This document shows, one piece after another, positions 37,549 through 57,066 of a stretch of 64,000 nt of DNA. Origin of the DNA: an uncultured bacterium (GTDB lineage: Bacteria > Bacillota_I > Bacilli_A > RFN20 > CAG-826); assembly GCA_949300345.1 (NCBI GenBank), contig CASGDR010000001.1, positions 131,835 through 195,834 of the forward strand, in the 5' to 3' direction. Every line of letters begins with the position of its first letter. The stretch's first letter is position 1. The notes under the pieces were generated by a model, which was given only the letters and a program-made list of their open reading frames with translations, was not told the DNA's origin and did no database searches. The position numbers were made by a program, and so were the translations under genes.

Positions 37549-38265
37549 ATGAAACTATCCCGTTATAAAAAAGATAGTCCTTTCTCCTATTGTCTTGGGG
37601 CTTTCCCGAGCATGGAGCTTCTTTCAAGCCGTCCTGAGGCTTGCCTTTCTTTGCATATCCATTCCACCTTTTCCAACCAGGAGTATCTGGATAAGGCCCT
37701 GGATATTTGCAGTCGCCATCAAATCCCGGTCTATAGGGATGATGATAGGAACATCGCTAGGCTTAACGAGAAGGAAAACGTCTATGTGGTGGCCACCTTC
37801 AAGAAATATGAAGATAGCCTTGATAAGGAAGGAGACCACCTGCTGCTGGACAAGCCTTCCAACATGGGCAATCTAGGGACCATCATCCGCTCGTCCCTGG
37901 GCTTTAGTGTAAAAGACATCGCCCTCATATCCCCCTGCCCCGACTATTTCGATCCCAAGGTAGTCCGCTCCAGCATGGGTGCCCTGTTCAAGGTAAGGAT
38001 TTCCAAATTTGCTTCCTACAAGGAATATAAGGAAGGCTTCCCCGACCACATCGTCCATGCTTTCATGCTCGATGGGAAAAACATCCTTCAGGAATATAGC
38101 TTTCCTAAGGGCAAAAGGACTTTGGCTTTCGGAAACGAGGCCACGGGACTACCCCCTGAGTATTTGGATGAAAATTCCATCTACATCCGCCATAGCCATG
38201 ACATCGATTCACTCAACATAACCAATGCGGTCTCGATCGGGCTATACGAACTGAAGCGCAAATAA
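37549..38265 (+). CDS. SPOUT-superfamily TrmH/SpoU-type RNA 2'-O-methyltransferase
   Basis: 238 aa with motifs NMGNLGTIIRSS, FGNEATGLP and SLNITNAVSIGLYEL. Confidence 0.75.
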   Translation: MKLSRYKKDSPFSYCLGAFPSMELLSSRPEACLSLHIHSTFSNQEYLDKALDICSRHQIPVYRDDDRNIARLNEKENVYVVATFKKYEDSLDKEGDHLLLDKPSNMGNLGTIIRSSLGFSVKDIALISPCPDYFDPKVVRSSMGALFKVRISKFASYKEYKEGFPDHIVHAFMLDGKNILQEYSFPKGKRTLAFGNEATGLPPEYLDENSIYIRHSHDIDSLNITNAVSIGLYELKRK

Positions 38266-38395
38266 CCATAGCAAACAAAAACCCCGAACGGGTCGGGGGC
38301 GATTGCGGGTTTGCCTTCCTACTACGCTTTTGATACAGTGCACACCCCAAGGCAATTTACACGGCGTAAGGAAATAGTTTCAAACAATCCCCATT

Positions 38396-39004
38396 TTATC
38401 GGTATTTTCCGAAGAACTTCTCCTCTCCTGCCTTCCTTGCTTTGATGGCGTCCCTTTTATGCTTGAACCTGCCCAACAAATATGCCTTACGTTGGAACAT
38501 AATCTGAGCCACCCATAGCCCTCGCCGCCTATCGAAATGAACGCCCCTGACGCCGGACGTGTTGTTTCTGTTGAGCTTTCTGTCGGCCTTGGTTCCGCTC
38601 TTCATAGTCCCATCGACCAGTCCCCTATCTAGGTGAGGAAGGTTCGCCCTGTTCTCGTCGTTCTTGCATCCGCAGGAAACGGTCTCCCCGGTGGTAAGCT
38701 GTGAGGTCGCAACGTAGCAGACATTCCCGCAGTCGCACTGGCACCTCCAATAGTTCTTCCTGTTCTTGGCATAGGCAAACTCAAGGACGGTCAGCCTGCC
38801 GAATTTCTGGCCTGTGAGGTCTTTCCATCTGAATCTCCTGCAGCCACAGGATTTGACGTGGCCGGTATGGAGCTTGTTGATGTTGATCTCGATGATCTTT
38901 CCACAGACGCATCGGCATTTATAGATCTTGGTGGAATGATATTTCTTTCCCGTATCCTCAAGGACAGTCAGATAGCCATATTGCTTTCCGATTTCACTAT
39001 TCAT
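38396..39004 (-). CDS. AP2-domain DNA-binding protein with tandem CxxC zinc-ribbon repeats (phage/MGE-associated)
   Basis: 202 aa. It has two repeats of G(Y/R)LTVLE...C.C.CG and a C-terminal AP2-like SGVRGVHFDRRRGLWVAQI...LGRF. Confidence 0.6.
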   Translation of the reverse strand: MNSEIGKQYGYLTVLEDTGKKYHSTKIYKCRCVCGKIIEININKLHTGHVKSCGCRRFRWKDLTGQKFGRLTVLEFAYAKNRKNYWRCQCDCGNVCYVATSQLTTGETVSCGCKNDENRANLPHLDRGLVDGTMKSGTKADRKLNRNNTSGVRGVHFDRRRGLWVAQIMFQRKAYLLGRFKHKRDAIKARKAGEEKFFGKYR

Positions 39005-39017
39005 TCAGTCACCACAT

Positions 39018-39677
39018 CTATTGTCTTCTGGTCCACTTATATCTTGAATAGACCTCATTCACAGCTTCGATGTAGCAAATGAATGATGGATGATTATGGT
39101 CGTTCCTACTCAAATAGAGATTCTTTTTGTCAAGATAGCAGCCTCTTACTTCTTCCCATAAGTTATTGTCTTTAAGTGCTGCAGCCTTTTGTGATACTTC
39201 GCTTGAGTCAGGCACTTGATTCCAAAAATAATTGTCAGAGTCAGCAAACCCGGTTTTTTTGTGAATCAAGCGATACCAGTTACCATCATCATCCTTTGCA
39301 ATGATACAAACATCCATACTAAATTGGATGTCGGGATAATCATTAAAATGGCATGGATAAGTAGTTAAAGATGATGTTGAATCTTGGACGTCTCTGAGAT
39401 TTTGTTTTCTCATTACCTTGTTGAGGCACTTTCTTGCAGTTTCCTTTAGATATTGGCAGTCGTTGATATCCTCGCATTTCTGAATCAGAAGGTTGTAATC
39501 AAGATCGATGTCACCATTTTCATTTTGAGTGACCATGTTCCTTCCACCACTTCCAACTAATATAAATTGAGAACTAATGCCTTCCTCTTGTAATAAATGA
39601 ACCAACTCCTGCAAATCCTTAACACAGGAATTTTGAGCCCTTTTAAGAAAATTTTTGTCCTCTACAAAACGATACAT
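39018..39677 (-). CDS. Pol-beta-type nucleotidyltransferase-fold protein (GS...DxDxD), minimal NTase/SMODS-like
   Basis: 219 aa with LVGSGGRNMVTQNENGDIDLD and a downstream acidic MDVCII. The region is AT-rich. It lies 13 nt upstream of the AP2 gene. Confidence 0.55.
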   Translation of the reverse strand: MYRFVEDKNFLKRAQNSCVKDLQELVHLLQEEGISSQFILVGSGGRNMVTQNENGDIDLDYNLLIQKCEDINDCQYLKETARKCLNKVMRKQNLRDVQDSTSSLTTYPCHFNDYPDIQFSMDVCIIAKDDDGNWYRLIHKKTGFADSDNYFWNQVPDSSEVSQKAAALKDNNLWEEVRGCYLDKKNLYLSRNDHNHPSFICYIEAVNEVYSRYKWTRRQ

Positions 39678-39810
39678 ACTTAAAACCTCCTTAAGTGATA
39701 AATTTCCCCTAGCCGACCATCTGAAGTATGTATCTTTGCTTCAAATCATTAGATTTTATCATCGACATTCATCTTTGTCGATAATCTAGAATGTTTTCAT
39801 TCATTTTCAT

Positions 39811-39836
39811 AAAAAGACCGGGGATTTCACTCCCCA
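39811..39836 (-). terminator. Rho-independent terminator overlapping stop of serine recombinase
   Basis: On the minus strand, GGGGAGTGAAATCCCC is followed by GGTCTTTTTAT. Confidence 0.55.
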
Positions 39837-41407
39837 GCCTTGATGGTGGCCTCATAGCCGCAATAGAATCTGAACGTTATTGATTTGTCCCTATGGACGA
39901 TTGCCTTCTCCAGCGTGAAATTGAATATCGCCTCATCCCAGTCGAGCATTGCCTCGCCTTTTCGGAGCGTCGCAAGGAAGGCTTCGAGGTTCCCGGCTTT
40001 CAGCCTCTTCCCCTCCTTCTCGCCGATGAGTTTCTTGCATTCCTCTTCCTTCCTTTTGTATTCATCCTCGAGCTCTGCGTACTTTCTTCGCCAAACTGCT
40101 TGATCCTGCGGGCTTCTGGTGTTCATCTTCACCAGCAGGTTGAACTCCTTCGACATCTCCTCGAGTTCCTTTTTTAGCCCGCCGATGTCCGCATCGAGCT
40201 TGGAAGTGTCGGTAAGCAACGACATCGCGGCTTGGATGTCATCCATGACCGTCTCCTTGCCCGAAATCATCAGGTTGTAGGCTTTCATGAACCTTGCCTT
40301 TATGTCCTCTTCCTCCAGGTTCGGCGTATGGCATTTGTTCCTGAACTTGTCGTTGCACTGGATGATCTCCTTTTCATGGGGAGTCCCGGAATGCCACTTC
40401 TTCTTTCCGTAGTACCCGCCGCAGTCCTCGCATATCAGCCTGGCCGCAAAAGGGTTCTTGTACGAGTAGGAATAGCTAAGCTCCTTCCTTCTGTGGATTT
40501 CTATCTGCACCAGCTCCCAGTCCTCCTTCGGGATGATGGTCGGATGCGAATCATGAACATAGTATTGAGGGACCTCGCCTTCGTTCTTCTTCGTCCTGTG
40601 CTGGAGGAAGTCGACCACGAAGCTTTTCTGAAGGAGGGCGTCGCCTTTGTATTTCTCGTTCTGGAGTATGGAGAGGGCGGTCGTCTTCGTCCACTTCGTC
40701 TTCCCCTTCGGCGTCAGTATCCCGTCCTTCATCAAGTCGGAGCAGATCTTGCCGATGCTCTCGCCCTTGAGGAAGCGGTAGTAGATCCTCCTAACGGTTT
40801 CCGCCTCCTGCTCGTTTATCCTGATCTCGCCGTTCTCGCCCTTTTCGTACCCGAGGAAGGCTTTGTAAGGCATGCTTACCTTCCCGTCGGCGAATCTCTT
40901 TCTCTGCCCCCAAGTGACGTTTTGGGAGATTGACCTGCTTTCCTCCTGAGCCAAGCTCGACATGATGGTGATGAGGAGCTCGCCCTTGGAGTCGAAGGTG
41001 TTGATGTTCTCCTTCTCGAAATAGCACTCGACGTTGTGCTCCTTGAGCTTCCTTATGTTCACCAAGCTATCGACGGTGTTGCGGGCGAATCTGGATATGG
41101 ACTTGGTGATTATCAAATCGATCTTCCCGCCGAGGGCATCGTCGATCATCCTTTTGAAGCCTTCTCTCCTTTTGGTGTTGGTCCCGCTGATGCCTTCGTC
41201 CGTGTAGACGCCCACGAGTTCCCAATCGGGCCTTCTTTTGATGTAATTGGTGTAATAGTCCACTTGGGCCTCATAGGAGGTCTGCTGCTCCTCTTGGTCT
41301 GTCGAGACGCGGGCGTAGGCGGCAACCTTCCTCTTCCTTAAGCTGCCTTGGGGAAGCCTGGTCAATGGATTTATGGTTGGCTCAATCTTGGTTATCGTTC
41401 TTGCCAT
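39827..41407 (-). CDS. Large serine recombinase (resolvase/recombinase/zinc-ribbon/coiled-coil), CcrB-sized
   Basis: 526 to 536 aa. N-terminal resolvase domain AAYARVSTDQ...Y with a catalytic Ser, a recombinase domain, a Cys zinc ribbon and a C-terminal coiled coil. The ORF extends to 41437. Start placed at MARTITK (41407). Confidence 0.8.
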   Translation of the reverse strand: MARTITKIEPTINPLTRLPQGSLRKRKVAAYARVSTDQEEQQTSYEAQVDYYTNYIKRRPDWELVGVYTDEGISGTNTKRREGFKRMIDDALGGKIDLIITKSISRFARNTVDSLVNIRKLKEHNVECYFEKENINTFDSKGELLITIMSSLAQEESRSISQNVTWGQRKRFADGKVSMPYKAFLGYEKGENGEIRINEQEAETVRRIYYRFLKGESIGKICSDLMKDGILTPKGKTKWTKTTALSILQNEKYKGDALLQKSFVVDFLQHRTKKNEGEVPQYYVHDSHPTIIPKEDWELVQIEIHRRKELSYSYSYKNPFAARLICEDCGGYYGKKKWHSGTPHEKEIIQCNDKFRNKCHTPNLEEEDIKARFMKAYNLMISGKETVMDDIQAAMSLLTDTSKLDADIGGLKKELEEMSKEFNLLVKMNTRSPQDQAVWRRKYAELEDEYKRKEEECKKLIGEKEGKRLKAGNLEAFLATLRKGEAMLDWDEAIFNFTLEKAIVHRDKSITFRFYCGYEATIKAGE

Positions 41408-42692
41408 ATAGCCTTTCCAGCTCCCTTCTTCTGGCATCTTCTTTCATCTCAGGTGTCCACGAATCCTTTCTCGACTTGAATTCGAAGTGCAGCGTCTTGA
41501 TGCTTCCGTCCATGAAGACGAAATCGACGTCCTTGCTTTCGTGGACGACTATCCTGTCTATCTTCTCCTTGAACGCCTTCTCGTCGAACTCCTTTATGCC
41601 CAACGCTTGGTTCGTCAGCTCGTAAAGGGTGTCTTCCCTAAGGGCGAGCGTCTGGCGGCATGCCGACTTCGAGAGGACGCTCATCGTCCCGCACGCCCAG
41701 AAGGTCCTGTATTTCGAATTCTTCCTCACGTAGTTCTTCCCGCATGTGGCGCACTTCAACTTCTTGGTGAAGGGGCTCAGGTTGTTGTTCGGTCCATAGC
41801 GGACCGGCCTTCTTTTCTCCATCAGCTCCTGCGCCCTGAGGAATTCCTCTTTGCCGACTATTGCATCGTGGTCCTCCGCGACCTTGTAAAGTGAGTATTT
41901 CCCAATATTCGCCTTGCAGTGCTCGTTTATGCCGCAAGAATACCTCCCCAGGACCAGCTCCCCTGTATAGGTCGGGTTCCTGAGTATCCATCTAACGGTG
42001 CTCTCCCTCCAAATGGATCCCATGGGCGAGGGGATCCCGTCCCCGTTGAGCCTCCTGGCAATCTTCTGGGTGCCGACGCCCTGTTTGGCGTACTCATCGA
42101 ATATCCTCCTTACTACCTTCGCTTCCTCCTCCTTGATTTCGTATCTTCCGTTCACCACCTTGTATCCGAAGAAATCGTGGAGCCCCCAGACCTTGCCTTC
42201 CTCGAAGAACTTGCCTACTTTCCACCTTACGTTGTTGGACATCGACACGACCTCCTCCTCGGCAAAACCTGCCAATAGGGAAAGCATCAGTTCCCCGTCC
42301 ACGCTCATCGAATGCATGTTCTGCTCCTCGAAGTAGACGTCGACGTTGAGCTTTTTTAGAAGCCTCGTCGTCTCCAAAAGCAGCATGGTGTTCCTCGCGA
42401 ACCTCGATATCGATTTGGTGACGATCATGTCGATTCTGCCCTGCTTGCAGTCCTCGATCATTCGATTGAATTCCGGTCTGTTGGCCTTGGTCCCGCTTAT
42501 CCCCTCGTCGGCGTAGATCCCGGCGAACATCCAGTCGGGGTTGCTTGATATGTAGTCCTGGTAATAGGACACCTGCGCCACAAATGAATGGAGGGTGGCG
42601 TCCTTGCTTACGGAGACCCTGCAATAGGCGGCAACCTTCTTCTTGCTCGGAAGGGTTGGCTTGGCTTTGATCTTCACTATTTGCCTATCCAT
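41382..42692 (-). CDS. Large serine recombinase (CcrA-sized), overlapping the downstream recombinase gene
   Basis: 436 aa with a resolvase N-terminus AAYCRVSVSKD, a recombinase domain and a zinc ribbon CATCGK. Confidence 0.8.
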   Translation of the reverse strand: MDRQIVKIKAKPTLPSKKKVAAYCRVSVSKDATLHSFVAQVSYYQDYISSNPDWMFAGIYADEGISGTKANRPEFNRMIEDCKQGRIDMIVTKSISRFARNTMLLLETTRLLKKLNVDVYFEEQNMHSMSVDGELMLSLLAGFAEEEVVSMSNNVRWKVGKFFEEGKVWGLHDFFGYKVVNGRYEIKEEEAKVVRRIFDEYAKQGVGTQKIARRLNGDGIPSPMGSIWRESTVRWILRNPTYTGELVLGRYSCGINEHCKANIGKYSLYKVAEDHDAIVGKEEFLRAQELMEKRRPVRYGPNNNLSPFTKKLKCATCGKNYVRKNSKYRTFWACGTMSVLSKSACRQTLALREDTLYELTNQALGIKEFDEKAFKEKIDRIVVHESKDVDFVFMDGSIKTLHFEFKSRKDSWTPEMKEDARRRELERLYGKNDNQD

Positions 42693-42732: not shown

Positions 42733-42918
42733 CTAGGTATTCAACCCATATAGGCGATAAACGCTGCCTGTTTTGATATGGTGCCTCTTGGCGATCTCCT
42801 TCTCGGCGACGATGTACTCCCTTTCGTCCAAAAGACCCCTTTTCTGCATGGTTTTCAACACGAAAACGGCGGTGAGGTAGCTTTGGGCGTCAACCTGGTA
42901 TTCCGCCAAATCACGCAT
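42733..42918 (-). CDS. Small hypothetical protein (approximately 62 aa) in recombinase leader
   Basis: Start at the internal Met MRDLAEYQVD. The upstream part of ORF 42733..43161 overlaps the next gene and has an R/S-rich, junk-like composition. Confidence 0.35.
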   Translation of the reverse strand: MRDLAEYQVDAQSYLTAVFVLKTMQKRGLLDEREYIVAEKEIAKRHHIKTGSVYRLYGLNT

Positions 42919-43210
42919 CGCCACCACCGCCTTTTTCCGCCTTGGCCTCCTGCTTTCTCCTTTCGTTCCACCAGGAATATTTGCATCCATGGGAGCAGAA
43001 GACTTGGTTAATGTGCCTCCTGTCGAGGACGAACGGCTTCCCGCATCTTCTGCAGTATCGGACCAGCCCCGCCGTATCCCTGTCCATGACGTTCCTCTTG
43101 CAGAAGGAAGCCACTGTGTTCTTTGAAATCCCCAAAAGGAAGGCGATCCTCTTGTAGCCAAGCCCCGCTTTGCGGTATTCGACGATCTTCCTCTCGTTTT
43201 CTCTTTCCAT
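42911..43210 (-). CDS. Sigma-70 region-4-like HTH protein with C-terminal zinc ribbon
   Basis: About 100 aa with the HTH YKRIAFLLGISKNTVASFCKRN followed by CRRCGKPF...CSHGC. Confidence 0.5.
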   Translation of the reverse strand: MERENERKIVEYRKAGLGYKRIAFLLGISKNTVASFCKRNVMDRDTAGLVRYCRRCGKPFVLDRRHINQVFCSHGCKYSWWNERRKQEAKAEKGGGGDA

Positions 43211-43239
43211 GCGAATCACCTCAACATACTGGAGAAAAC

Positions 43240-43668
43240 TCACCCTCTTTGATGGGGGTCGCCGAACAGCTTCACGTATTTTTTCTTCAGCTGCTCCTTC
43301 GTTTCGTGGACGGACTTGAAATCGACGTTCTCTATCCTGGCGACTTCCCTTTCGCTATGCCCTTCCTCGAAAAGCCTGTACCTTCTTAGCTGAACCGGCG
43401 TCAAAGAGGACAGGAACAGCTCGTATTTCCTCTGCTGTTCTTCCCTCTCCTCCTTCTTCAAAGCCGCCTCCAATGGGTCCGGGTCATTGGATTTGAACGT
43501 CTCGCCCTCGTAATCGGCATCGTCAAGGCTGAACGCCACATGGTATTTGTATCTTTGGTTGCTGGCGTCCTCTTCCCTGTCCAAAGAGACCATGAGTTCG
43601 CCGATTCGGTCGTCAACGTCTACGATATCGACGACGCGACCATCCAAGTCTTTTAACTTGATCTTCAT
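43240..43668 (-). CDS. Sigma-70 region-4/LuxR-like HTH regulatory protein
   Basis: About 143 aa from MKIKLKDLDG, with a C-terminal HTH LTPVQLRRYRLFEEGHSEREVARIENV. The ORF upstream extension is P/G-rich and unlikely to be coding. Confidence 0.45.
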   Translation of the reverse strand: MKIKLKDLDGRVVDIVDVDDRIGELMVSLDREEDASNQRYKYHVAFSLDDADYEGETFKSNDPDPLEAALKKEEREEQQRKYELFLSSLTPVQLRRYRLFEEGHSEREVARIENVDFKSVHETKEQLKKKYVKLFGDPHQRG

Positions 43669-44071
43669 TGAAAAAACCTCCATTCGGTTGGGAAATGGAG
43701 GCTTTCCTTCCGGTCCCTCTGGGCACGCTAAAGAGGCGGGCAACGGGAATGGAATGAGGCTTCCATTTCGTGTTGCACCTGGCCCCTTACGAGGGTTCGG
43801 ATGCTTCGACAATGCGCCGGCGTAAGTGCCATGGATCCGACGGCTTCCAGAGCCGGTTTCCCGGCTGGCAAGAACAGGTTATCTTCTGGAGTCTGCCATC
43901 AAAATTCCGCGGACACACGCAAGCACACGCAAATCCACACGCAGCCAAAAAGCTGATGAACAAGAGAGGGAAATCGAAGCAAAAAGCCGCACGCATTCGG
44001 CATAGTTTTTTGGCCTATGTCTTTTGCGTGTAGTTGCAAAAGCCGTGCGCTATAATGGTTAATGGTAAGAA

Positions 44072-45532
44072 ATGATGAGATTCAACCTGGACTTTCTGAC
44101 GGTATTCACCCTGGTAAAGCAATCCCTGACGAACGACTTGTCGGAGAACGAGATTTACAGGCGCCTGATATGCCTCGGCAACGAAAATCTGGACGGAAAG
44201 AACGACCCCCATCGTCACATAACAGGTGAAACGCAGATCAATGGGTCCAGAAACTCGTCCATCATAGGCAAATCTTCGATTGAGGTAATGGCCCGCTCAT
44301 ATGACTCGCTTTTCAGCGATTATATGAGCGTCTCCACGCGGAAGCGGATGGTATCCGTTCTCAAGGAAATACTGAAATCGTGCAACTGGCCCGACCCAGA
44401 ATTGGAAATAGGTGAAGGCAGCGGATTTACGCTCGAATCGGTCATCAACGGGAAGAGCTTTTGCTTCCCCTACCTCCTTGCGGCTTTGGTTAAATTCACG
44501 GTGCCAAGGGAAAACCCGCACAGGAAAGACTTCAAGGAATACCGCGTCACTGTCGTCGACTGCTACAACAGCGCGCCGGATGAGAACCTGGATTTGGTTC
44601 CGATCGACCTTGCGCTCCCCCGCGAAAAGGACACTTCGAGAATCGACGGAGCCGAATTCCGGAGGTTCTTCACGGAGGTGAATTCCGAGAAGTTTCCGGA
44701 GCAGTTCAAAGGCGCGGGCGACGTGAAGATTTTTCGTCTGAACATCAGGAACTCCCGGTTCGACTACGAAGGCCTCTCGGGATTCCTCGAGGAGAACATC
44801 GAGCATTATGTGATGAGCTCGCTCGAGGAAAAGTCCTACTATGACGAGCAGAGGACAAAGCATCTCACGCACGACGCAATAAAGAGGTTCGCGGCCTCCG
44901 CTTCCGGCAAAGACCTCCGCGAAGTTTATTCGCGGCTCATGCTTTACGTCTTCATGGAAGGCGGCCTCGGCGCGCCGAAGATATTCAACGCCGTCGAGAT
45001 AAAGGACAAGAACATTAGGAGCGACGGTGTTTACTACCTGCGAAAAGGGGTTATTTCCGACAAGCCTATGCTCATCCTCGGCGCATCGCAAACCTTCCCG
45101 ACGCTGGATGAGGCCATGGAAAACGGGCTTGCCCAAATCGACGTGATTTCGAGAGAGCAGGACAAGATGCTGTCTTTCATAAACCCCGCGTTCCTACGGA
45201 TGAGATTCGAGCAAGATGATCTCTCCTACATAGTCGACCGTCTCATAAAAGCGGAAGGAATTCTACAGAACGACGCGGCGTTCGGAGTGTTCCTCTCCTA
45301 TTCGCTCGATGAGTCGAACGATGGCAACTTATCCTCTAACGAGTTCAGGCAGAAAGTAGAGGAAAGAATGGAAAGGGACATAGCCGATGCGGTTCCCATG
45401 ATTTACGCGAAGATCAAGGAGCACGGGCTGCAAAACTATGGTTTCTTCGTGTTCGTCCTTCCCCTAACGAACGTGGAGACTGACGCCGAGAAGGTAATAC
45501 GCGGATTCGCCGGAGGAGAAATGAATGGCTAA
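44072..45532 (+). CDS. Unknown 486 aa protein, first gene of helicase/nuclease module (candidate HamA/DUF1837-like, unverified)
   Basis: No signal peptide and no recognised canonical motif. There is a possible restriction-endonuclease-like E...ExK segment, LYVFMEGG...NAVEIKDK. It overlaps the downstream helicase gene by 8 nt. Confidence 0.5.
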   Translation: MMRFNLDFLTVFTLVKQSLTNDLSENEIYRRLICLGNENLDGKNDPHRHITGETQINGSRNSSIIGKSSIEVMARSYDSLFSDYMSVSTRKRMVSVLKEILKSCNWPDPELEIGEGSGFTLESVINGKSFCFPYLLAALVKFTVPRENPHRKDFKEYRVTVVDCYNSAPDENLDLVPIDLALPREKDTSRIDGAEFRRFFTEVNSEKFPEQFKGAGDVKIFRLNIRNSRFDYEGLSGFLEENIEHYVMSSLEEKSYYDEQRTKHLTHDAIKRFAASASGKDLREVYSRLMLYVFMEGGLGAPKIFNAVEIKDKNIRSDGVYYLRKGVISDKPMLILGASQTFPTLDEAMENGLAQIDVISREQDKMLSFINPAFLRMRFEQDDLSYIVDRLIKAEGILQNDAAFGVFLSYSLDESNDGNLSSNEFRQKVEERMERDIADAVPMIYAKIKEHGLQNYGFFVFVLPLTNVETDAEKVIRGFAGGEMNG

Positions 45533-48110
45533 CCGCGTCCAAGAGATTCTTTTCCCTCGGCTAGAAGCAAGCCCCGTACTGAAACTACTTTTCTCTAAGC
45601 TTCTACAGGCCTACACAAGACTTAATTTCGGGATGGCACCGCCATCATTTGCCGAAAAGGAGATTAACCAGCTCATATCGTTCGCAAGCCTGCTCTCCAA
45701 ATCGAACGATTCCGGCCAAAAGGTCATATCCGAGCAAATCGTGGCACTGCTCGGAAAGCTCTACCCCGCCTCGGAAAGCATCAGGAAAGCCAAGGCGGAA
45801 GTGCTTTCCTCATGCACAAACTACGTCGGGATGAAGGTGGAAAAAATGGAGGGAAGGAGCGACGACGTATTCCAGGAAATCAGCTCGGAAATCCAAATGG
45901 AATCGCTGAAGATTCCGTTTCAGGACGGCAAGTTCTTCATAGACGACCAAAAGGAGATATTCGACAGCTTCGAGAAATACCAATTCGTCAGCTACTCCGC
46001 CCCCACGTCGCTTGGGAAATCGTTCGTAATGAGGATCTACCTCAAATACAAGGTTGCCAGCGGATACCGAGGAAACTTCGCGATAATCGTCCCAACAAAG
46101 GCCCTCATCAACGAGATGAGGAACAGCGTCGTCGAAGAGGACCTGAAGGACCTTCTCCGGAAGATGCACTACAGGGAGGTTTCGTCGGTCAACGAGGTAT
46201 TCGTCACCGAAGACAAGGAATCGAAGTTCATCTTCATAGTGACACCGGAGAGGCTCCACTATCTCCTCAACAGCACCGACATAGCCATCGACTGCTGCTT
46301 CGTCGACGAGTCATACAAGATATCGGAGCCCGACTCAAGGAGCCTCTACTACTATCAGGCAATAAACCAGCTCCTTGCTCGGAACCCTAAGACGAAAATA
46401 TTCTTCTCGTCCCCGAACATACCGAACCCCGAAGTCTATCTCGAAACGATAAAGGCGCCCGGGACAAGATACAGGAAGGCGACCGGGTACTCGCCCGTCA
46501 GCCAGATCAAGTACCTCATCTCGCTGAAGGAAAAAGACCGGCCAATCAAGGTGTTCAACGACCTCACCCAGGTGTTGGAGGACACGGGCATGACGAACCC
46601 GTCCACGAACATCAACGACATAATATCCACGCTGAAGACGAAGGGCGGGAACATCGTCTATTGCTCAGGGAAGGACAAGACCGTTGAGCTTGCCCTGCAA
46701 TATGCCAATTTCCTGCCCGCCTTCCAGCCCAGCACGCCTGAGGAAAGGGAAAATCAGGAAAAGCTTGACGCCCTGGCTAAGAGCATCGAGCAGGACATCC
46801 ACGAGGATTACTACCTCGCCGCTCTCATGCGAAAGGGCGTCGCCTACCACGTCGGCTACCTGCCGAATTCGCTCAGGAACAGCATAGAGAAGGCGTTCAA
46901 GACCGGGCTCATAAAGACCATCTTCTGCACGAGCACCCTAATGGAGGGGGTCAACCTCCCCGCGGACAACCTCTTCGTGACGAGCACGAGGAATGGCTCA
47001 GAGGCCATGTCTCCGACTGCGTTCAAAAACCTCCTCGGTAGGATTGGAAGGATCAATTACAGTCTTTTCGGGAACGTCTACCTCTTAGTCATCCCTCGCT
47101 ATGCCAATGCCGAAAAGTACGAGGAGCTGCTCACGTCAAAGGTCGAACCACAAAAACTGTCGCTCGATAAGATAGTCACGGACGGGTCGATCGTCGACCA
47201 CATCAGCGACGATGCATATTTCTTCGGACGCGAGGACGAGGACCAGACGAAAAGGATAGCGGCCAACATCTACATAAACGACGTTAAGAATGGCACGGAA
47301 TCACTCATCAGGGAAAGGGTCGACTCAAAAAGCGAGGAGACATTGGTTGACAAGGCTATAAGGAAAATCGAATTGCTGGAAACATCGGAAAGCATAGACA
47401 TCTCACCGGACCAGCACGTGAGCCTCAAAAAGTACATAGAAAACGGCGGCCATTACCCCGATCCCGTGAACGGCCGGTTTGAACACAGCGACGTCTGGCG
47501 CTTCCTCAACGAGCTTTCGGACATTTATAAATGGGACAAGTACGAGTTCGAGACACTTAAGAACGGCAATTCGAACTCGTATTTCGCGACCGTCCTCTCC
47601 CAGTGGATGAGCGGACTCAAAGTAAAGGAAATCGTCGACCGATCGATAGAGAGCAAGAAAAAGAACCCATATGACGCGATCTTCGACAGAAAGCTCCACA
47701 TGAAGGTCGATTACATCGGCACGGTCGAGCAAAACAACATAATCATCAACGACACGCTCAGGACGATTGAGCAAACAATCCTTTTCACCATAGCGAACTA
47801 CTTCAGAGAGTTTTCGAGGGAATACAAGAACTTCCACCACCTGGAATATTTCGACAACGACTGGTACGAGTACGTAGAGTTTGGAACCAGCAACCCAATA
47901 ACCATCGCACTTCAAAGGAACGGATACATCCGCGAAACGGCCAAATGGATACACGAAAACGATTCAAAGTACCATCTGATCGATCAAACCCGCCGATGCA
48001 AATTCGCTCCATTCACCTTAGACCTCGACAACCTTTTGAAATGCGGCGAGCAGAAAGTAATTGAAGAGACGCTCGTCATCAAACTAAATGTCCCAGAGCT
48101 TTTTAGATAG
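45525..48110 (+). CDS. SF2 (Ski2/DExH-like) helicase, candidate HamB-like
   Basis: 861 aa with motif I SAPTSLGKSF, motif II CFVDESYK (DESY in place of DExH), a motif VI-like LLGRIGRIN, and FCTSTLMEGVNLP. Confidence 0.65.
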   Translation: MANRVQEILFPRLEASPVLKLLFSKLLQAYTRLNFGMAPPSFAEKEINQLISFASLLSKSNDSGQKVISEQIVALLGKLYPASESIRKAKAEVLSSCTNYVGMKVEKMEGRSDDVFQEISSEIQMESLKIPFQDGKFFIDDQKEIFDSFEKYQFVSYSAPTSLGKSFVMRIYLKYKVASGYRGNFAIIVPTKALINEMRNSVVEEDLKDLLRKMHYREVSSVNEVFVTEDKESKFIFIVTPERLHYLLNSTDIAIDCCFVDESYKISEPDSRSLYYYQAINQLLARNPKTKIFFSSPNIPNPEVYLETIKAPGTRYRKATGYSPVSQIKYLISLKEKDRPIKVFNDLTQVLEDTGMTNPSTNINDIISTLKTKGGNIVYCSGKDKTVELALQYANFLPAFQPSTPEERENQEKLDALAKSIEQDIHEDYYLAALMRKGVAYHVGYLPNSLRNSIEKAFKTGLIKTIFCTSTLMEGVNLPADNLFVTSTRNGSEAMSPTAFKNLLGRIGRINYSLFGNVYLLVIPRYANAEKYEELLTSKVEPQKLSLDKIVTDGSIVDHISDDAYFFGREDEDQTKRIAANIYINDVKNGTESLIRERVDSKSEETLVDKAIRKIELLETSESIDISPDQHVSLKKYIENGGHYPDPVNGRFEHSDVWRFLNELSDIYKWDKYEFETLKNGNSNSYFATVLSQWMSGLKVKEIVDRSIESKKKNPYDAIFDRKLHMKVDYIGTVEQNNIIINDTLRTIEQTILFTIANYFREFSREYKNFHHLEYFDNDWYEYVEFGTSNPITIALQRNGYIRETAKWIHENDSKYHLIDQTRRCKFAPFTLDLDNLLKCGEQKVIEETLVIKLNVPELFR

Positions 48111-48119
48111 GAGGATACC

Positions 48120-50063
48120 GTGGAAACTCCCGATAAAATCATTCAATCATGCGATCCTTTGGATCTTCTTTCCAAACTTTCATATCTCAAGTGGCTAATG
48201 GCGACAGACGCTTTTTCGGATAGAGACAAGCAGCCATTCACCTTTTTGGAAGTCAAATACGCACTGCATTACGTCATGTCCTATCTGCTGTCCCATAAGC
48301 TTGGCGAAGCAGCTAATCAATCCATACAGTATGAAACAATTTCCACCTTAATCTGCGCGCTTGCCCAAGAAGAAATAAATAGAAAGTTTAACGAGGAAGC
48401 GACACTGGATAAGCTGTCAGGAAAACTTCAATACACTCAGAAAGACTCAGGCGAATTGCTTCCTTTATTCTACTCCGTTCCATTTCGCCACATTTTAGAA
48501 GGGGAAGATGACATAATCTCAGCAAAATACGGATGCAATTCGAATGACATACTCAATGATTTCGCGACATTGGTGGGCGCTTTCAATAACTCAGTAAGAG
48601 CCAAAGGAATGAAAGTTTTCGATTTCGTCAATAGGTTCAACGACTACTGCAACTCCTCCGCCTTGGCAATCCAAAAAAACATGAAAAGTTACGGCTTGTT
48701 CAAAACAATGTCAGGCCGAATAGGCCAATTCGCAGAAGACGAATTTGATCACGGTTACCCAATTTCGCTAATTAAGAAATTCAGGAAACTCTTCATCAGA
48801 GTTGACGATATTTTGTACTGCCCAGATTTGGAGCTTGTCCCAAATCTAATCGTCCGCTGCGTAGAAAGAGCGATGCAGCAAGACAAAAGGCAAAATCCAG
48901 AATGGGATCTGCGGATGAAGGAAAGAACAGAGAAACTCGTGAATGGCGCCCTTTCGCACTATTTCAAAGGAGGGACATACCATGCGAACTCAGAGTTTGG
49001 CCAGAAAGAAAAAGGGGAAAGCGATGGCCTCTTTGAATTCTTGGGACATCTTTTCATAATTGAAGTTAAAGCCGGAAAGCTTAGTCCCGATCCTGTCGAG
49101 TCAAATAACACCACTGTTCATCAATCCTACAAGGCAACGATAGGAAAAGGGACCAAGCAATGTGACAAGGCAGAAAATCATATTCTCGAACATGGCGGCA
49201 AATTCAAAGAAGACGGCCACGAATTCCGAGTGAATTACGATATTGAGCACATCATCAAACTCGTCATTTCATTTGAAGACCTTTCCGCTGTTTTGCCGGA
49301 TGAGAATATTCAAACCCCTAATCACACAATTCTCATGACTTATTTTGATTTGCTTATAGTGCTTGACTATATAAACGAACCAATTCTTTCCCTCAAATAT
49401 TTCTTGGAGAGAAGAAAGGCATTGGAGCATTGCTGGGATATTTCAGACGAAATGATTTATCTGGGTTTATTTAGCGACGACATGAATTTTACGTATCGCT
49501 TAAATTCCCAACCCTTTTCTTCTTCGGCAGACAACTCCACAAATTTCGTCCTTGATCCGCATTCGTTCACGCACGAAATAGAGATGCACTACACGCAACC
49601 AGAACGATATCCCAAACCAAAAATACATTTGAGTGAATTTCAAAGGCTGGTATTGGCGGCACTCAATGGAAAGGATAGCATCTCGTCTAAATGGGCAATG
49701 CCACTGCTTATGCTTCCTACTCAATTCGGAGATAAATTGATGTTGCTTTTCCAAAGGAATAATTGTCACAGAGGTTTTGCCCCACAAGTAGGCATGGCTG
49801 GGTTCGCAAACGGAAAACATATCGCCGTTATGGTGTCAAAAAAGCACATAGGAGAACAAAGATATATCTATTATGCCATTGCGAATAGGTTCTTCAGAAA
49901 GCATGGAGAAGCGAAAGAAATCGTAAGCCTGATTGTTGACGGCCAGCGTTCCCACCTCGAGGAAATTGACCATTCGCGAAAGGAATTAAACTATCAAAAG
50001 ACCCTAGATGCGCTTCAACAAATAGAAGCCAAATTTGGGTTTAGACAAAAGATCTACAAATAA
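48120..50063 (+). CDS. Large PD-(D/E)xK nuclease-fold protein of unknown family (AT-rich)
   Basis: 647 aa. A central motif ESDGLFEFLGHLFIIEVKAGK gives D...E-V-K. It starts 9 nt after the helicase stop. Its GC is markedly lower than that of its neighbours. Confidence 0.55.
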   Translation: METPDKIIQSCDPLDLLSKLSYLKWLMATDAFSDRDKQPFTFLEVKYALHYVMSYLLSHKLGEAANQSIQYETISTLICALAQEEINRKFNEEATLDKLSGKLQYTQKDSGELLPLFYSVPFRHILEGEDDIISAKYGCNSNDILNDFATLVGAFNNSVRAKGMKVFDFVNRFNDYCNSSALAIQKNMKSYGLFKTMSGRIGQFAEDEFDHGYPISLIKKFRKLFIRVDDILYCPDLELVPNLIVRCVERAMQQDKRQNPEWDLRMKERTEKLVNGALSHYFKGGTYHANSEFGQKEKGESDGLFEFLGHLFIIEVKAGKLSPDPVESNNTTVHQSYKATIGKGTKQCDKAENHILEHGGKFKEDGHEFRVNYDIEHIIKLVISFEDLSAVLPDENIQTPNHTILMTYFDLLIVLDYINEPILSLKYFLERRKALEHCWDISDEMIYLGLFSDDMNFTYRLNSQPFSSSADNSTNFVLDPHSFTHEIEMHYTQPERYPKPKIHLSEFQRLVLAALNGKDSISSKWAMPLLMLPTQFGDKLMLLFQRNNCHRGFAPQVGMAGFANGKHIAVMVSKKHIGEQRYIYYAIANRFFRKHGEAKEIVSLIVDGQRSHLEEIDHSRKELNYQKTLDALQQIEAKFGFRQKIYK

Positions 50064-55100: not shown

Positions 55101-55236
55101 ATTCCTCCAATTCTCCCTCGTAAAGAGGCGATTCGTAGTCCCTATCCGGAAGGTCGGGGCCATAAACATGCCTGTAGCCGAGGCCTTCGAGAAGCTGGAC
55201 TATAGAATTCTCGTATGTATTTTCAGTGAATGGCAT
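52156..55236 (-). CDS. hsdR: Type I restriction enzyme R subunit
   Basis: 1026 aa with an N-terminal HsdR_N region, SF2 motifs GSGKSLSM and SDEAHRSQ, and a C-terminal helical domain. Confidence 0.9.
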   Translation of the reverse strand: MPFTENTYENSIVQLLEGLGYRHVYGPDLPDRDYESPLYEGELEESLRRINPSLKEEAIQDALNKLHHFENADLIQKNKLFMDYLQNGLPVRYRENGESKSDMCYLVDYDHPERNSFVVANQWTFVERSNKRPDILIFLNGLPVVLMELKSPSREETNASEAYSQIRNYIHEIPSMFIYNALCVMSDLLLSKAGTITSDEERFMEWKSKDGTYTTDCVATFDVFFEGIFPKERLLDIIRNFICFSNEGIKTFKIMAAYHQYFAVNKAIKSTERAVATDGKGGVFWHTQGSGKSLSMVFYAHLLQQHLDSPTIVVLTDRNDLDDQLFSQFAKCSEFLRQKPIQAESREHLVKLLDERKANGIFFTTIEKFTESAKPLSTRKNIVVMSDEAHRSQYGLTEKVRIKKDENGNDVAVTTIGYARKVRDALPNATYIGFTGTPVFSKDHNTKEIFGDYIDIYDMTQSVADGATRPVYYESRVIKLKLDEETIGKIDDLYDKLEEDSDPSVIEASKRKLGQLEAVLGNPKTINSLVTDIIGHYENNREHLLTGKAMIVAYSRPIAMEIYKEILRQRPTWTEKVAVVMTSDNRDPEWWRDIIGNKARKQELATRFKDNSSPLKIAIVVDMWLTGFDIPSLATMYVYKPMVGHNLMQAIARVNRVFEDKEGGLVVDYIGIANALKQAMREYTVRDQKNFGDMDVSKEAYPKFQEKLQVCKDLFHGFDWAAFNSGDDLVKAQTITGAVNFMVAPELAETKKDFLKQGLLCHQALSLCSSLATAEERHEASFFESVRVLLNRLESAGGPKKYSLSEVNDKVSELLKQSVISEGVINLFEDREVSFSLFNPDFLAEISKMKEKNIAVELLKKLISEQIRIFRKTNLVQSVKFSEIIQRIVTKYLNGMLTNEEVMHELLDLAEQIRKATEQGKELGLTTEEKAFYDALTQPAAVMDFYTNDELVAMTKELTELLRKNETIDWQKREGARSHMKMLVKRLLKKYKYPPEGEEREKAIQTVLEQCELWTDNVMGGESDGR

Positions 55237-55253
55237 AGCAGCCCTCCTTTCAT

Positions 55254-55281
55254 CCGTTTAAACGATAATTTATCGAAGCAG
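55254..55281 (+). repeat. hsdS recombination repeat R1 (forward; encodes NDNLSKQ)
   Basis: ccgtttaaacgataatttatcgaagcag. It is a 22 bp perfect inverted match to 55971..55992 and a 22 bp direct match to 57546..57567. Confidence 0.8.
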
Positions 55282-55344
55282 ATATCTACACTTATCGCTC
55301 ATGAATTCCCATATACAGCCGATGAATTCATAAGTGGTTGGCAT

Positions 55345-55968: not shown

Positions 55969-55992
55969 GACGATAAATTATCGTTTAAACGG
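55969..55992 (-). repeat. hsdS recombination repeat R2 (inverted copy)
   Basis: gacgataaattatcgtttaaacgg is the reverse complement of R1. Confidence 0.8.
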
Positions 55993-56066
55993 ACGTAGCT
56001 CCCCCGCGGCGGGAGGCCGAGAGAAACAGCCGCGGAAAGCGCTTCTCCAGTAATAAGGAGGAGAAC

Positions 56067-57053: not shown

Positions 57054-57066
57054 GGAGGAAAAAGAC

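Follow-up and report, generated by a model that had tools for sequence, protein, structure and literature searches.

A minimal CD-NTase-like gene and an AP2-domain gene, probably independent passengers of a recombinase-driven mobile defence island

A gene for a small nucleotidyltransferase (NTase) and, close behind it, a gene for a protein with a C-terminal AP2 domain mark the left end of a mobile defence island. Comparison of this locus with its relatives leads us to propose that the two genes are probably independent passengers of an island driven by serine recombinases, and that they would have become neighbours through the insertion of a single-gene NTase cassette between the recombinase operon and the AP2 gene. 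The NTase belongs to a minimal CD-NTase-like family that is carried, without an effector, by mobile elements of gut Bacillota, and its mRNA begins with a conserved structured leader.

Layout of the locus and boundaries of the NTase cassette

The features of the locus are collected in Table 1; the window is the whole stretch of DNA that was analysed, 64,000 nucleotides in length. An earlier note on this DNA had delimited the two ORFs exactly, and its description of a 13-nt gap and of a position next to the recombinases, at the left end of the island, proved accurate. Both genes lie on the same strand, the pair adjoins both recombinases, and the defence cargo of the island comprises Hachiman, GmrSD and a type I restriction-modification (R-M) system. 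The terminator scan of the window reported none between the NTase and AP2 genes, and this short terminator-free gap implies that they would be co-transcribed here. The description of the pair as a two-gene AT-rich module had to be abandoned, because only the NTase gene is AT-rich (37% GC, with 33% in its upstream spacer); the AP2 gene has a GC content of 50.6%, in line with its surroundings.

Table 1. Positions of the features of the NTase-AP2 locus within the window
Feature	Position	Strand	Basis and details
Apparently autonomous NTase cassette (terminator-like hairpin, promoter, leader, ORF)	39019..39840	(-)	DNA homology to loci without an AP2 gene
NTase ORF	39018..39677	(-)	Open reading frame calls; 219 aa
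AP2-domain protein ORF	38396..39004	(-)	Open reading frame calls; 202 aa
Tandem large serine recombinases	39827..42692 (39827-41437, 41382-42692)	(-)	536 aa + 436 aa; Pfam Resolvase, Recombinase, Zn_ribbon_recom
SigA/sigma-70-type promoter of the NTase cassette	39753..39781	(-)	Promoter scan
Conserved 5' leader motif of the NTase mRNA	39706..39748	(-)	Covariance model R1
Shine-Dalgarno (SD) AAGGAGG	39686..39692	(-)	By reading; 8 nt 5' of the NTase ATG
Possible intrinsic terminator of the recombinase operon	39811..39836	(-)	Identified by eye; GGGGA-GUGAAA-UCCCC then GGUCUUUUU
Intrinsic terminator 3' of the AP2 gene	38282..38298	(-)	Terminator scan; CCCCGACCCGTTCGGGG then TTTTTGTTTG
Terminal segment of the mobile element	38303..38369		blastn; 87% identity over 69 bp to L001 10075-10140

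The intrinsic terminator 3' of the AP2 gene stands between this gene and a convergent SpoU methylase gene (37549-38265). The terminal segment of the element is the last stretch that the window has in common with L001, the locus of the same lineage; according to blastn, homology to L001 is absent past 38303, and the flanking SpoU gene is absent from the common stretch. On the other side of the pair, the possible terminator of the recombinase operon overlaps the recombinase stop codon; this hairpin was omitted by the terminator scan because its T-run begins 4 nt past the stem.

The boundaries of the cassette emerged from comparison with the loci L002, L003 and L004. blastn aligned the cassette with them at ~74-75% identity, from window positions 39840, 39815 and 39692, respectively, to 39019, and the homology ends at the NTase stop codon. 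With L001 the cassette is 96-100% identical and the AP2 gene 79-95%. The promoter of the cassette consists of a -35 element TCGACA (39781-39776), a 17-nt spacer and a TG-extended -10 element TAAAAT (39758-39753). Promoters match the consensus at 10 or more of 12 positions in 66 of 72 leaders, and the distance from the end of the -10 element to the leader motif (4 nt in the window) is identical in all 72. SD sites of the AAAGGAG type are also kept across the leader alignment. Judging from these alignments, the NTase appears to travel as a self-contained single-gene cassette of ~0.8 kb with a near-consensus promoter and a leader.

The NTase family and its 5' leader

The NTase carries a GS loop (G42-S43), the catalytic aspartates D58, D60 and D122 and a conserved DSTS motif at residues 99-102. 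The earlier note had read its signature as G-S-x10-D-I-D-L-D plus a third acidic residue. The motif itself stands, down to 28% identity, with a spacing of x12 and not x10 (GS-x12-D-I-D58-L-D60, then D122). The note had also made its reading depend on conservation in homologues, and this was borne out: G42, D58, D60 and D122 are invariant in 50 homologues, and of 93 homologues with 28-52% identity, 88 retain G42, 82 D58, 88 D60 and 88 D122. D56 is not conserved and is mostly Pro among homologues. From the conserved residues we infer that the GS loop together with D58, D60 and D122 would bind Mg-NTP and catalyse nucleotidyl transfer.

An AlphaFold (AF2) model of the NTase (pLDDT 89.6, pTM 0.86) was compared with the PDB using Foldseek. 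All of the 50 best matches were CD-NTases, cGAS-type enzymes (one of them a cGAS-like receptor, cGLR) or OAS, with CdnB, CdnE, CdnC, CdnG, DncV and cGAS in the lead and a best E of 1.4e-6 (8yss). The similarity is moderate (TMq 0.40-0.56, with 0.56 for 7ljo; rmsd 5-8 A), over alignments of ~140-300 columns (~205-230 for the best-scoring CdnB, CdnC and CdnE entries). According to the model and Foldseek, the protein has the bilobed cGAS/DncV-like fold by which CD-NTase/SMODS enzymes are recognised. The fold check against SMODS, CD-NTase, MNT and Pol-beta families that the earlier note had proposed thus came out in favour of the SMODS/CD-NTase half of its assignment, while the MNT toxin-type half fell away. 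We class the modelled NTase as a cGAS/DncV (SMODS/CD-NTase) type with intact catalytic residues, neither an MNT nor a plain Pol-beta enzyme, and the model depicts it as trimmed at both lobes relative to the CD-NTase fold.

Sequence models see little of this relationship. There was no SMODS or other NTase Pfam match at E up to 1, no NCBIfam match with AMR models included, and nothing meaningful in searches of PDB sequences with either the single protein or a family profile. PADLOC models for CBASS cyclases match a minority of family members weakly (E 9e-5 to 5.5e-7) and make up four of the five models matched; the fifth, PDC-M02B, an uncharacterised candidate among the PADLOC models, matched a single member, again weakly. 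The homologues bear no informative names in their sources, and we did not find the family described in the literature on orphan or minimal CD-NTases and on NTases in plasmid leading regions.

The family comprises about 950 clusters at 50% identity and is restricted to mobile elements and viral contigs, occurring on integrative and conjugative elements (ICEs), recombinase-borne islands and viral contigs of gut Bacillota. It was absent from the PLSDB plasmids searched, and the two matches among INPHARED phages are both unannotated or hypothetical. Clustering of the neighbours in 80 genome loci revealed no conserved partner, and no Cap effector (phospholipase, nuclease, TM, TIR, SAVED or others) is adjacent to the NTase in these loci or in the window. 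The commonest +1 gene, at 9 of the 80 loci, encodes a T4SS PrgI-like protein; in 6-9 loci of Lachnospiraceae type the NTase lies inside the T4SS operon, between TrbL-like and PrgI/VirB4 genes. At 5-6 loci a zinc-ribbon transmembrane protein is encoded 3' of the NTase with an overlap of 7 nt, and such arrangements suggest that some clades may have partners. A Rosetta-stone search returned one PIN7 fusion and two unknown C-terminal domains, and fusions were ruled out as a pointer to a partner gene because they are too rare. By analogy with its structural relatives, the NTase may produce a nucleotide, an oligonucleotide or a nucleotidylated target, and a reader or receiver of this product would be encoded away from the next-door position.

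In the leader motif, YGAUUU is followed by a 7-bp hairpin with a variable loop and then by AAAUGG-NN-GG-NUU-GGG. Transcription in the window is predicted to start within its GAUUU element, at the G or the A (39747-39746). The R1 covariance model locates it in the window at 32.3 bits (E 7.6e-6), as the sole significant match. The hairpin is 96.9% paired, with compensatory changes in five of the seven pairs, a level reached by none of 500 shuffles. The motif lies 5' of the NTase in 72 of the 80 genome loci and in all 26 IMG/VR (viral-contig) hits, and it was found nowhere other than before NTase genes. Searches of Rfam 15 (window 39600-39900 and L029 7860-8060) gave chance-level matches, with E of at least 0.4. 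The leader is better conserved than the NTase protein, the motif being near-invariant where proteins share ~30% identity. We consider it a candidate for a previously undescribed, family-specific cis-regulatory RNA.

One helix of the leader is supported, and no evidence emerged for a ligand, a terminator or an alternative structure that sequesters the SD. A strong long-range helix between the G-rich tail and codons 9-15 is found in a Lachnospiraceae ICE subgroup; as a feature of the whole family it was rejected, its duplex energy being no better than that of controls (median -11.35 vs -10.5 permuted and -9.55 shuffled). A two-tier G-quadruplex that includes the SD was unsupported, with one of 59 leaders and one of 295 shuffles predicted to form it by ViennaRNA G4 energies, an energy model that is weak for two-tier G4s. 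The AUG within AAAUGG was discarded as a start codon or uORF, as its frame relative to the NTase AUG is unconserved and no SD precedes it. Nor does the leader qualify as a recombination site of the cassette, since each locus has one copy and there is none at the 3' boundary.

We infer that the leader, with its 5'-terminal hairpin and its G-tracts just 5' of the SD, would gate the amount of enzyme, with a ligand, a host factor or the NTase itself as its possible trigger. It might even be a new class of RNA sensor that controls a stand-alone minimal cGAS-like enzyme, acting as a riboswitch or else through binding by the NTase that it precedes, much as OAS and cGAS bind nucleic acids. Promoter, leader and NTase would in that case form a complete sensing and signalling cassette with a single gene, used by mobile elements of gut Bacillota in defence or counter-defence, and the receptor of its product would lie elsewhere or be absent; we put this forward as speculation and think it unlikely.

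The AP2 protein and the meaning of its adjacency to the NTase

The AP2 protein has no HNH Pfam match, its 202 residues being filled by two CxCxC...CGC beta-repeats (~10-55 and ~68-113) and a C-terminal AP2 domain (~150-201). Each repeat contains five Cys and is modelled (AF2, pLDDT 87.2) as three strands and a short helix. The tandem repeats described earlier are present, but they depart from classical Cys4 ribbons. The C-terminal AP2 domain was confirmed. A Pfam AP2 match is weak (E 0.006, below cutoff), matches to PHROG 'HNH endonuclease' families (E down to 7.6e-49) extend over the Cys repeats as well as the AP2 part, where they cover residues 139-201, and Foldseek retrieves the AP2 domain of TEM1 (probability 1.00, rmsd 1.4 A, 51 columns, 27% identity) as well as WRINKLED1. 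Pfam and PADLOC detected no recognisable nucleotide-sensing domain (SAVED, STING, CARF). We assign the protein to the HNH-AP2 lineage as a DNA binder without a nuclease, and it would derive from the DNA-binding modules of HNH-AP2 homing endonucleases.

The AP2/Cys-repeat family is very abundant, with >4000 clusters, and one homologue is named 'transcriptional regulator' in its source. The AP2 gene of L001 is followed by a separate 260-aa ORF, which matches HNH_5 weakly. Judged by gene order, the real linkage of the family appears to be to tandem serine recombinases. AP2 homologues at 63-84% identity hold the same place behind recombinases without any NTase, and in L085/L086 and L087-L090 the order is recombinase, recombinase, AP2, with a spacer of ~57-66 nt and no NTase. 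This association, at the end of the element, suggests that the AP2 protein may be a regulator or accessory factor of the element and not an effector of the NTase. The literature on AP2 domains with serine recombinases yielded nothing describing the NTase family.

The earlier note had asked whether the two genes are ever co-encoded elsewhere. The pair does recur, yet only 4 of ~107 NTase loci have an AP2 homologue beside the NTase, and these belong to three lineages (window/L001, L043/L045 and L095). It is present in 3 of the 80 genome loci, where each AP2 homologue detected is the immediate neighbour of the NTase, and in none of the 26 IMG/VR loci. A survey from the AP2 side found an NTase in 1 of 90 loci (L095), with the order reversed. 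Three gene orders were seen (recombinase-NTase-AP2, NTase-AP2...recombinase and AP2-NTase...recombinase), and the spacing between the two ORFs varies (13, 88 and ~264 nt). Adjacency is thus more frequent than expected from random placement, and its recurrence is explained by a shared cargo slot. The elements at L095 and L096 are 96% identical, and where one of them carries the NTase cassette, the other has an unrelated 339-aa ORF in that slot. With so few loci, a variable order and no conserved neighbour, the signalling, toxin-antitoxin or other two-gene system envisaged at the outset does not hold up; a facultative functional link, such as regulation of adjacent cargo by the AP2 protein, may still exist.

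How probable are the individual alternatives? A signalling pair, with a nucleotide signal produced by the NTase and the AP2/zinc-repeat protein as its nucleic-acid-binding effector, would account for the tight, terminator-free spacing on one strand and for the recurrence in L001, in L043/L045 and, reversed, in L095, and the fold class of the NTase (CD-NTase) is one of signalling enzymes. We nevertheless regard it as highly improbable, given the rarity of the arrangement and its varying order and spacing, the close AP2 homologues that lack an NTase, an AP2 protein that is all DNA-binding modules without SAVED, STING or CARF, and the differences in composition and divergence between the two genes. 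Hardly any credence can be given to a toxin-antitoxin-like pair, with the NTase as a MenT/AbiEii-type toxin or MNT-type antitoxin and the AP2 protein as its DNA-binding partner or autoregulator. Neither Pfam, NCBIfam nor PADLOC gave a match to MNT, AbiEii/DUF1814 or HEPN, the fold matches are to CD-NTases and not to MenT/MNT, and >95% of the family has neither an AP2 neighbour nor any other conserved neighbour; all this outweighs the mobile-element setting, the tight spacing and a strong promoter and elaborate leader which suggest that expression needs control. It is quite unlikely, too, that the AP2 protein controls the transcription of any cargo that happens to fill the slot next to it, which would make the adjacency functional but generic. 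The occupation of that slot by the NTase or the 339-aa ORF in sibling elements, the 'transcriptional regulator' name and the sequence-specific DNA binding of AP2 domains (Foldseek matches; PMC10448857) are in its favour. Against it, the AP2 gene of the window lies downstream of the cargo and is not divergent, and the NTase has the same leader and promoter in ~100 loci that lack an AP2 gene; therefore NTase expression is not AP2-dependent.

Two further readings concern the NTase by itself. As a stand-alone counter-defence or establishment factor expressed with transfer genes, it might provide decoy nucleotides, consume immune signals or modify host sensors. Its place inside a T4SS operon at 6-9 loci, its restriction to mobile elements and viral contigs and the absence of a linked effector point in this direction, but homology to known anti-defence proteins was not found, and in the window it rides with Hachiman, GmrSD and a type I R-M system, where defence fits equally. 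We hold this for doubtful, if worth keeping in mind. It is very unlikely that the NTase, as cargo of ICEs, confers resistance by modifying small molecules in the manner of ANT/Lnu enzymes. Resistance genes controlled by leaders exist, for example those with the erm and cat attenuators, and the NTase, as the only gene of a cassette that brings its promoter along on gut Firmicutes ICEs, would suit such a role. However, NCBIfam gave no match even with its AMR models, ANT, Lnu and KNTase structures are absent from the 50 best fold matches, no PLSDB plasmid carries the NTase, and the leader encodes no leader peptide in a conserved frame, its upstream AUG being in frame at some loci only. Independent carriage of the NTase cassette and the AP2 gene beside the recombinases is the reading that we prefer.

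Comparison with known systems

CD-NTases are understood as one half of cyclase-effector operons. The family described here keeps the catalytic core, is one third smaller, has no linked effector and occurs only on mobile elements of gut Bacillota, which raises the questions of what an effector-less cGAS-like enzyme produces, what reads this product and which signal the leader senses. The result also corrects a piece of annotation logic, as neighbouring genes at an island's edge may have nothing more in common than a cargo slot beside recombinases.

The CBASS CD-NTases (CdnB, CdnE, CdnC, CdnG, DncV; SMODS) resemble the NTase in the GS loop, the DxD and the third Asp, and in having an N-terminal spine helix, an NTase core and a C-terminal helical lobe. 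The NTase differs from them in its length (~220 aa vs ~270-390 aa in the matched structures), in lacking a Pfam/NCBIfam model match, a Cap effector and a conserved neighbour, and in having a dedicated structured 5' leader; to our knowledge no such leader has been reported for CD-NTases. OAS and cGAS share the fold class (cGAS, OAS2 and one cGLR are among the matches), and by analogy the NTase could in principle bind the 5'-terminal hairpin of its own mRNA. Here the leader lies in cis on the NTase's own mRNA, and we treat the resemblance as a lead only. The leader is similar to the orphan riboswitch candidates and structured 5' leaders in Rfam in being a short conserved, covarying hairpin with conserved single-stranded nucleotides between promoter and SD of a single gene family; it differs in having no Rfam 15 match and a single supported helix.

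Among other NTases, HalB of the Hailong system makes oligodeoxyadenylate that keeps the HalA channel closed, according to the summary in PMC13434031 (Tan et al. 2025). It too is a small NTase associated with defence, with a product that serves as a signal, and the 5-6 loci with an overlapping zinc-ribbon transmembrane protein loosely recall its combination of NTase and membrane effector. On the other hand, HalB is absent from the 50 best PDB fold matches, a HalA-like partner is absent from the window and most loci, and the PADLOC matches of the family are to CBASS cyclases and PDC-M02B only. Unlike the MNT-HEPN and AbiEii-MenT systems, the NTase has no NTP_transf_2 or DUF1814 match and no HEPN or AbiEi neighbour, and it is set apart from the ANT/Lnu nucleotidyltransferases by the lack of an AMR-model or fold match.

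HNH-AP2 homing endonucleases were reportedly treated by Magnani and co-workers in 2004. A family of them ('IPA-HNH' HEGs) is described in PMC10448857. With these enzymes and with the plant AP2/ERF factors the AP2 protein shares the C-terminal AP2 fold (TEM1). It departs from the homing endonucleases in having no HNH domain and in being stably linked to tandem serine recombinases, instead of forming a free-standing homing gene.

The nucleotidyltransferase cassette and its AP2 neighbor

The earlier note placed the nucleotidyltransferase (NTase) and AP2 ORFs 13 nt apart and adjoining recombinases, and both the coordinates and the Pfam domains of the recombinases agree; the two ORFs are on the minus strand. 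The pair is probably co-transcribed, since the gap contains no terminator. Base composition contradicts the label of a two-gene AT-rich module: the NTase gene is 37% GC and its upstream spacer 33%, against 50.6% for the AP2 gene and about 53% for the recombinases. AT-richness in the pair is limited to the NTase gene.

Features of the window (positions in nt)
Feature	Position	Strand	Remarks
NTase ORF	39677-39018	-	219 aa; AAGGAGG ahead of start
AP2 protein ORF	39004-38396	-	202 aa; 13 nt 3' of NTase ORF
Two large serine recombinases	upstream of NTase	-	536 and 436 aa; each with Resolvase, Recombinase and Zn_ribbon_recom domains
Intrinsic terminator	38298-38282		past AP2 gene
SpoU methylase gene	beyond 38298-38282 terminator		convergent with AP2 gene
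Promoter plus leader	39706-39781	-	
NTase -35	39781-39776	-	
NTase -10	39758-39753	-	
Leader motif	39748-39706	-	R1 match
NTase SD	39692-39686	-	
Small genes	42733-43812	-	upstream of recombinase pair
Hachiman, complete	44072-48110	+	HamA (DUF1837, PADLOC E 6.7e-54), then overlapping HamB helicase (E 1.8e-248)
647-aa ORF	48120-50063	+	begins 10 nt past HamB
GmrSD-type type IV restriction enzyme	50112-52166	-	GmrSD_N and GmrSD_C, C-terminal DUF5655; strong PADLOC matches Orf5/HEC-06
Type I R-M	52156-60168		
hsdR	52156-55236	-	
Tyrosine integrase	56067-57053	+	between/beside the opposed hsdS genes
hsdS	57067-58131	+	
hsdS	57984-58664	-	
hsdM	58654-60168	-	

The two ORFs had been read as one module, whether a signalling pair, a toxin-antitoxin-like pair or a moron. 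The co-occurrence check proposed with that reading was run on 80 genome loci encoding NTase homologues, whose hosts are gut Clostridia, Bacilli, Erysipelotrichales, Acholeplasmatales and one Metamycoplasma. By tblastn, AP2 homologues were found at only three of them (comparison loci L001, L043 and L045); L001 has a near-identical NTase-AP2 block in common with the window, and L043 and L045 are one and the same element. None of 26 NTase-bearing IMG/VR loci encodes an AP2 homologue. Among 80 further metagenomic loci of the AP2 family, an NTase occurs only at L095, downstream of the AP2 gene.

DNA comparisons separate the two genes as well. Loci L002-L004 match the window at about 74-75% identity from 39840, 39815 or 39692 to 39019, the match stopping at the NTase stop codon, and the AP2 gene is absent there. 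DNA of L085 aligns to the window's recombinases and AP2 gene while skipping the 0.8 kb between. Between L001 and the window the NTase cassette (the gene with its own promoter and leader) is 96-100% identical and the AP2 gene 79-95%; the recombinase differs. In L095 and L096 the AP2 gene adjoins a slot whose two flanks are 96% identical between the loci; the slot holds an NTase cassette in L095 (6619-7530) and an unrelated 339-aa ORF in L096 (6660-7679), the latter without match in Pfam or PADLOC. This slot is a swappable cargo position. The NTase cassette, whose boundaries are demonstrated, can be exchanged independently. The AP2 gene, for its part, belongs to the recombinase module. Its homologues (63-84% identity) lie directly 3' of tandem large serine recombinases where NTase is absent, with a spacer of about 57-66 nt in L085/L086 and L087-L090, and in L081-L084 they stand beside recombinase remnants.

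The adjacency nevertheless recurs in three lineages, with the orders recombinase-NTase-AP2 in the window, NTase-AP2...recombinase in L045 and AP2-NTase...recombinase in L095. A slot for cargo next to the AP2 and recombinase genes accounts best for this recurrence, a facultative interaction being the less likely explanation. As a system the NTase-AP2 pair is not a real feature, the original hypothesis being largely refuted by the locus survey and the DNA comparisons. We consider it likely, by a fair margin over even odds, that these genes form no dedicated pair and that a stand-alone NTase cassette was inserted beside a recombinase-associated DNA binder; in the window, insertion would have been between the recombinase operon and the AP2 gene of the recombinase module.

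The AP2 protein carries two copies of G-x-L-T-V...Y-x-C-x-C-x-C-G...L-x-x-G...S-C-G-C, followed by NNTSGVxGV...W-x-A-Q-I...LGRF...A-x-x-A-R. Tandem Cys repeats and a C-terminal AP2 domain had thus been recognized correctly, but the repeats are not Cys4, since each has five conserved Cys. An AlphaFold2 model (pLDDT 87.2) gives three strands and a short helix per repeat and the canonical AP2 sheet and helix at residues 155-201; Foldseek aligns it with the AP2 domain of Arabidopsis TEM1 (27% identity and rmsd 1.4 A across 51 columns) and with WRINKLED1 on DNA. PHROG 'HNH endonuclease' families match the repeats as well as the AP2 segment, with E as low as 7.6e-49, and a Pfam search finds no HNH domain in the protein. 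The family comprises more than 4000 clusters and varies in repeat number. HNH-AP2 proteins are described as a homing-endonuclease family of phages and cyanobacteria (Magnani et al. 2004, as cited in PMC10448857). The AP2 protein may regulate or assist the mobile element. At L001 a 260-aa ORF (9292-10074, +), missing from the window, lies 6 nt past the AP2 gene and weakly matches HNH_5 (E 3.6e-4); the two ORFs may represent an HNH-AP2 endonuclease that has split or decayed.

The remaining island cargo is defence: Hachiman HamA/HamB, a GmrSD-type enzyme and a type I R-M system. The ORF following HamB, without match in Pfam or PADLOC, could be a third Hachiman component or separate cargo. The type I system, in which an integrase adjoins inverted hsdS genes, looks like a phase-variable specificity shufflon. 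The small genes upstream of the recombinases (also L045 9845-10448 and L095 8497-9139) are a gene for an HTH plus Cys-rich protein and, overlapping with it, an ORF of some 90 aa; both are conserved beside tandem serine recombinases in several elements and are likely part of the recombination module.

Family and fold of the nucleotidyltransferase

The NTase motif reads LVGS-GGRNMVTQNENG-DIDLD, that is GS-x12-D56-I-D58-L-D60, with a third acidic residue, D122, in FSMD122. The GS, the last two Asp of DIDLD and the third acidic residue of the earlier reading are conserved, but the spacing is x12 rather than x10. G42, D58, D60 and D122 are invariant in 50 homologues, as are N47, N62, K78, D99, S100, S102, R136, H139, K141 and W152. 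Across 93 distant full-length homologues (28-52% identity) the motif is mostly retained (G42 in 88, S43 in 83, D58 in 82, D60 in 88, D122 in 88), the D56 position being mostly Pro. Judged from the alignment, the catalytic residues are intact.

The family is unnamed and numbers 965 clusters by word-indexed search, or 947 representatives at 50% identity by exhaustive profile search; nearly all members have 205-240 aa and lack Pfam annotation, and the NTase itself has no match in Pfam or NCBIfam. In PADLOC, family members match four 'oligonucleotide cyclase' models of CBASS, all weakly and at best with E 5.5e-7; the one other match is of a single member to the uncharacterised candidate PDC-M02B (E 0.0019). 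An AlphaFold2 model built from the family alignment (pLDDT 89.6, pTM 0.86) was compared with the PDB by Foldseek. The best 50 matches are all CD-NTases (DwCdnB, BfCdnB, ClCdnE, EmCdnE, EcCdnC, BdCdnG, DncV), cGAS-type, including one cGAS-like receptor, or OAS (best E 1.4e-6; TMq 0.40-0.56), and the top-scoring CdnB, CdnC and CdnE entries cover about 205-230 alignment columns against the NTase's 219 residues. Structures of MNT, MenT/AbiEii, ANT/Lnu and HalB are absent from those 50. This fold check supports the SMODS/CD-NTase side of the proposed class but not MNT. The NTase is roughly one third shorter than the solved CD-NTases matched. Taken together, motif conservation and best 50 matches confined to CD-NTase, cGAS and OAS point to a minimal cGAS/DncV-like NTase.

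All-against-all clustering of five genes per side at the 80 loci revealed no conserved neighbor. The commonest +1 gene encodes a PrgI-like T4SS protein (9 loci), the NTase there lying inside a conjugation operon between a TrbL-like gene and PrgI/VirB4. The sole neighbor of operonic look is a zinc-ribbon two-TM protein (about 233 aa), whose gene overlaps the end of the NTase gene by 7 nt in L039, L057, L061, L062 and L075 and is the +2 gene in L040; this protein may be a membrane partner specific to a clade. The family is restricted to mobile elements.

Rare C-terminal fusions join family members to a PIN7 domain (P0351) or, in two pairs (P0346/P0370 and P0277/P0305), to shared unclassified domains of about 80-130 aa. 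Four proteins (P0300, P0341, P0356, P0404) have near-identical C-terminal NTase segments, unrelated N-termini and differing breakpoints; by eye, two of these N-termini resemble a P-loop ATPase/helicase (P0404) and an Mrr-type restriction enzyme (P0356). These are either assembly chimeras or products of repeated intragenic recombination.

The leader of nucleotidyltransferase genes

Upstream of NTase genes lies a motif of YGAUUU, a stem-loop and AAAUGG-NN-GG-NUU-GGG, followed by the SD. The promoter is near the consensus TTGACA-17-TATAAT: 66 of 72 distinct leaders agree with it at 10 or more of the 12 positions, and in all 72 exactly 4 nt separate the end of the -10 hexamer from the motif. The same arrangement is found about 50 nt upstream of the NTase in L001-L080, and in L173-L237. 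The 7-bp hairpin is 96.8-96.9% paired, with compensatory changes at five of seven pairs (49 cells in 50 sequences, 77 in 80); none of 500 shuffles reached the observed covariation, and slid registers all dropped to 14-51% paired. Near-invariant in 72-80 of 80 sequences (columns of the leader alignment) are G2, A3, U4, U5, U6, the AAAU stem base, G35/G36, G39/G40 and G44-46, and conservation of the leader exceeds that of the protein. Given G-U pairs on the sense strand and the position downstream of the promoter, the element is most simply read as an RNA structure at the extreme 5' end of the NTase mRNA.

A covariance model of the motif (R1) has a single match in the 64-kb window. Of the 80 NTase loci it matches 72, and from each match the NTase ATG lies 12-58 nt downstream, with a median of 16. 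The only extra match in these loci (L080 11374-11408) precedes a second NTase; this locus has two divergent paralogues about 3 kb apart (7942-8642, +; about 11408-10700, -), each with its own leader motif. Over 637 kb of AP2-family loci R1 found only L095, which carries an NTase. A degenerate pattern gave 67 matches in IMG/VR. All 26 scoring at least 31 bits have an NTase homologue immediately 3', which in some cases shares only 29-35% identity with family members. None of the 41 weaker matches has one downstream, and eight of these that were inspected lie inside open reading frames, lacking promoter or SD. The leader is associated exclusively with NTase-family genes, and no Rfam 15 family matches it. 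It presumably controls NTase expression. A tail-to-CDS helix was family-wide no better than controls, no G-quadruplex is predicted, and the upstream AUG is discounted as a start, its frame not being conserved.

Comparison with known systems

We infer that the NTase is active, giving a nucleotide-type product or nucleotidylating a target, and that its function benefits the mobile element via defence or counter-defence; any specific biochemical role is held with far less confidence than the stand-alone cassette. A literature search found no description of an NTase family with this leader. The NTase has neither the curated-model match nor the linked effector by which CBASS membership is judged. 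Small size is shared by HalB of Hailong, an NTase that makes a signal (summarised in PMC13434031); HalB is absent from the best 50 fold matches, and the NTase lacks a HalA-like partner. By modelled fold and by motif the NTase would work like CD-NTases. In place of the pair there is a widespread, effector-less enzyme, predicted to be mini-cGAS-like, whose dedicated RNA leader is apparently novel; this offers a concrete, testable lead.
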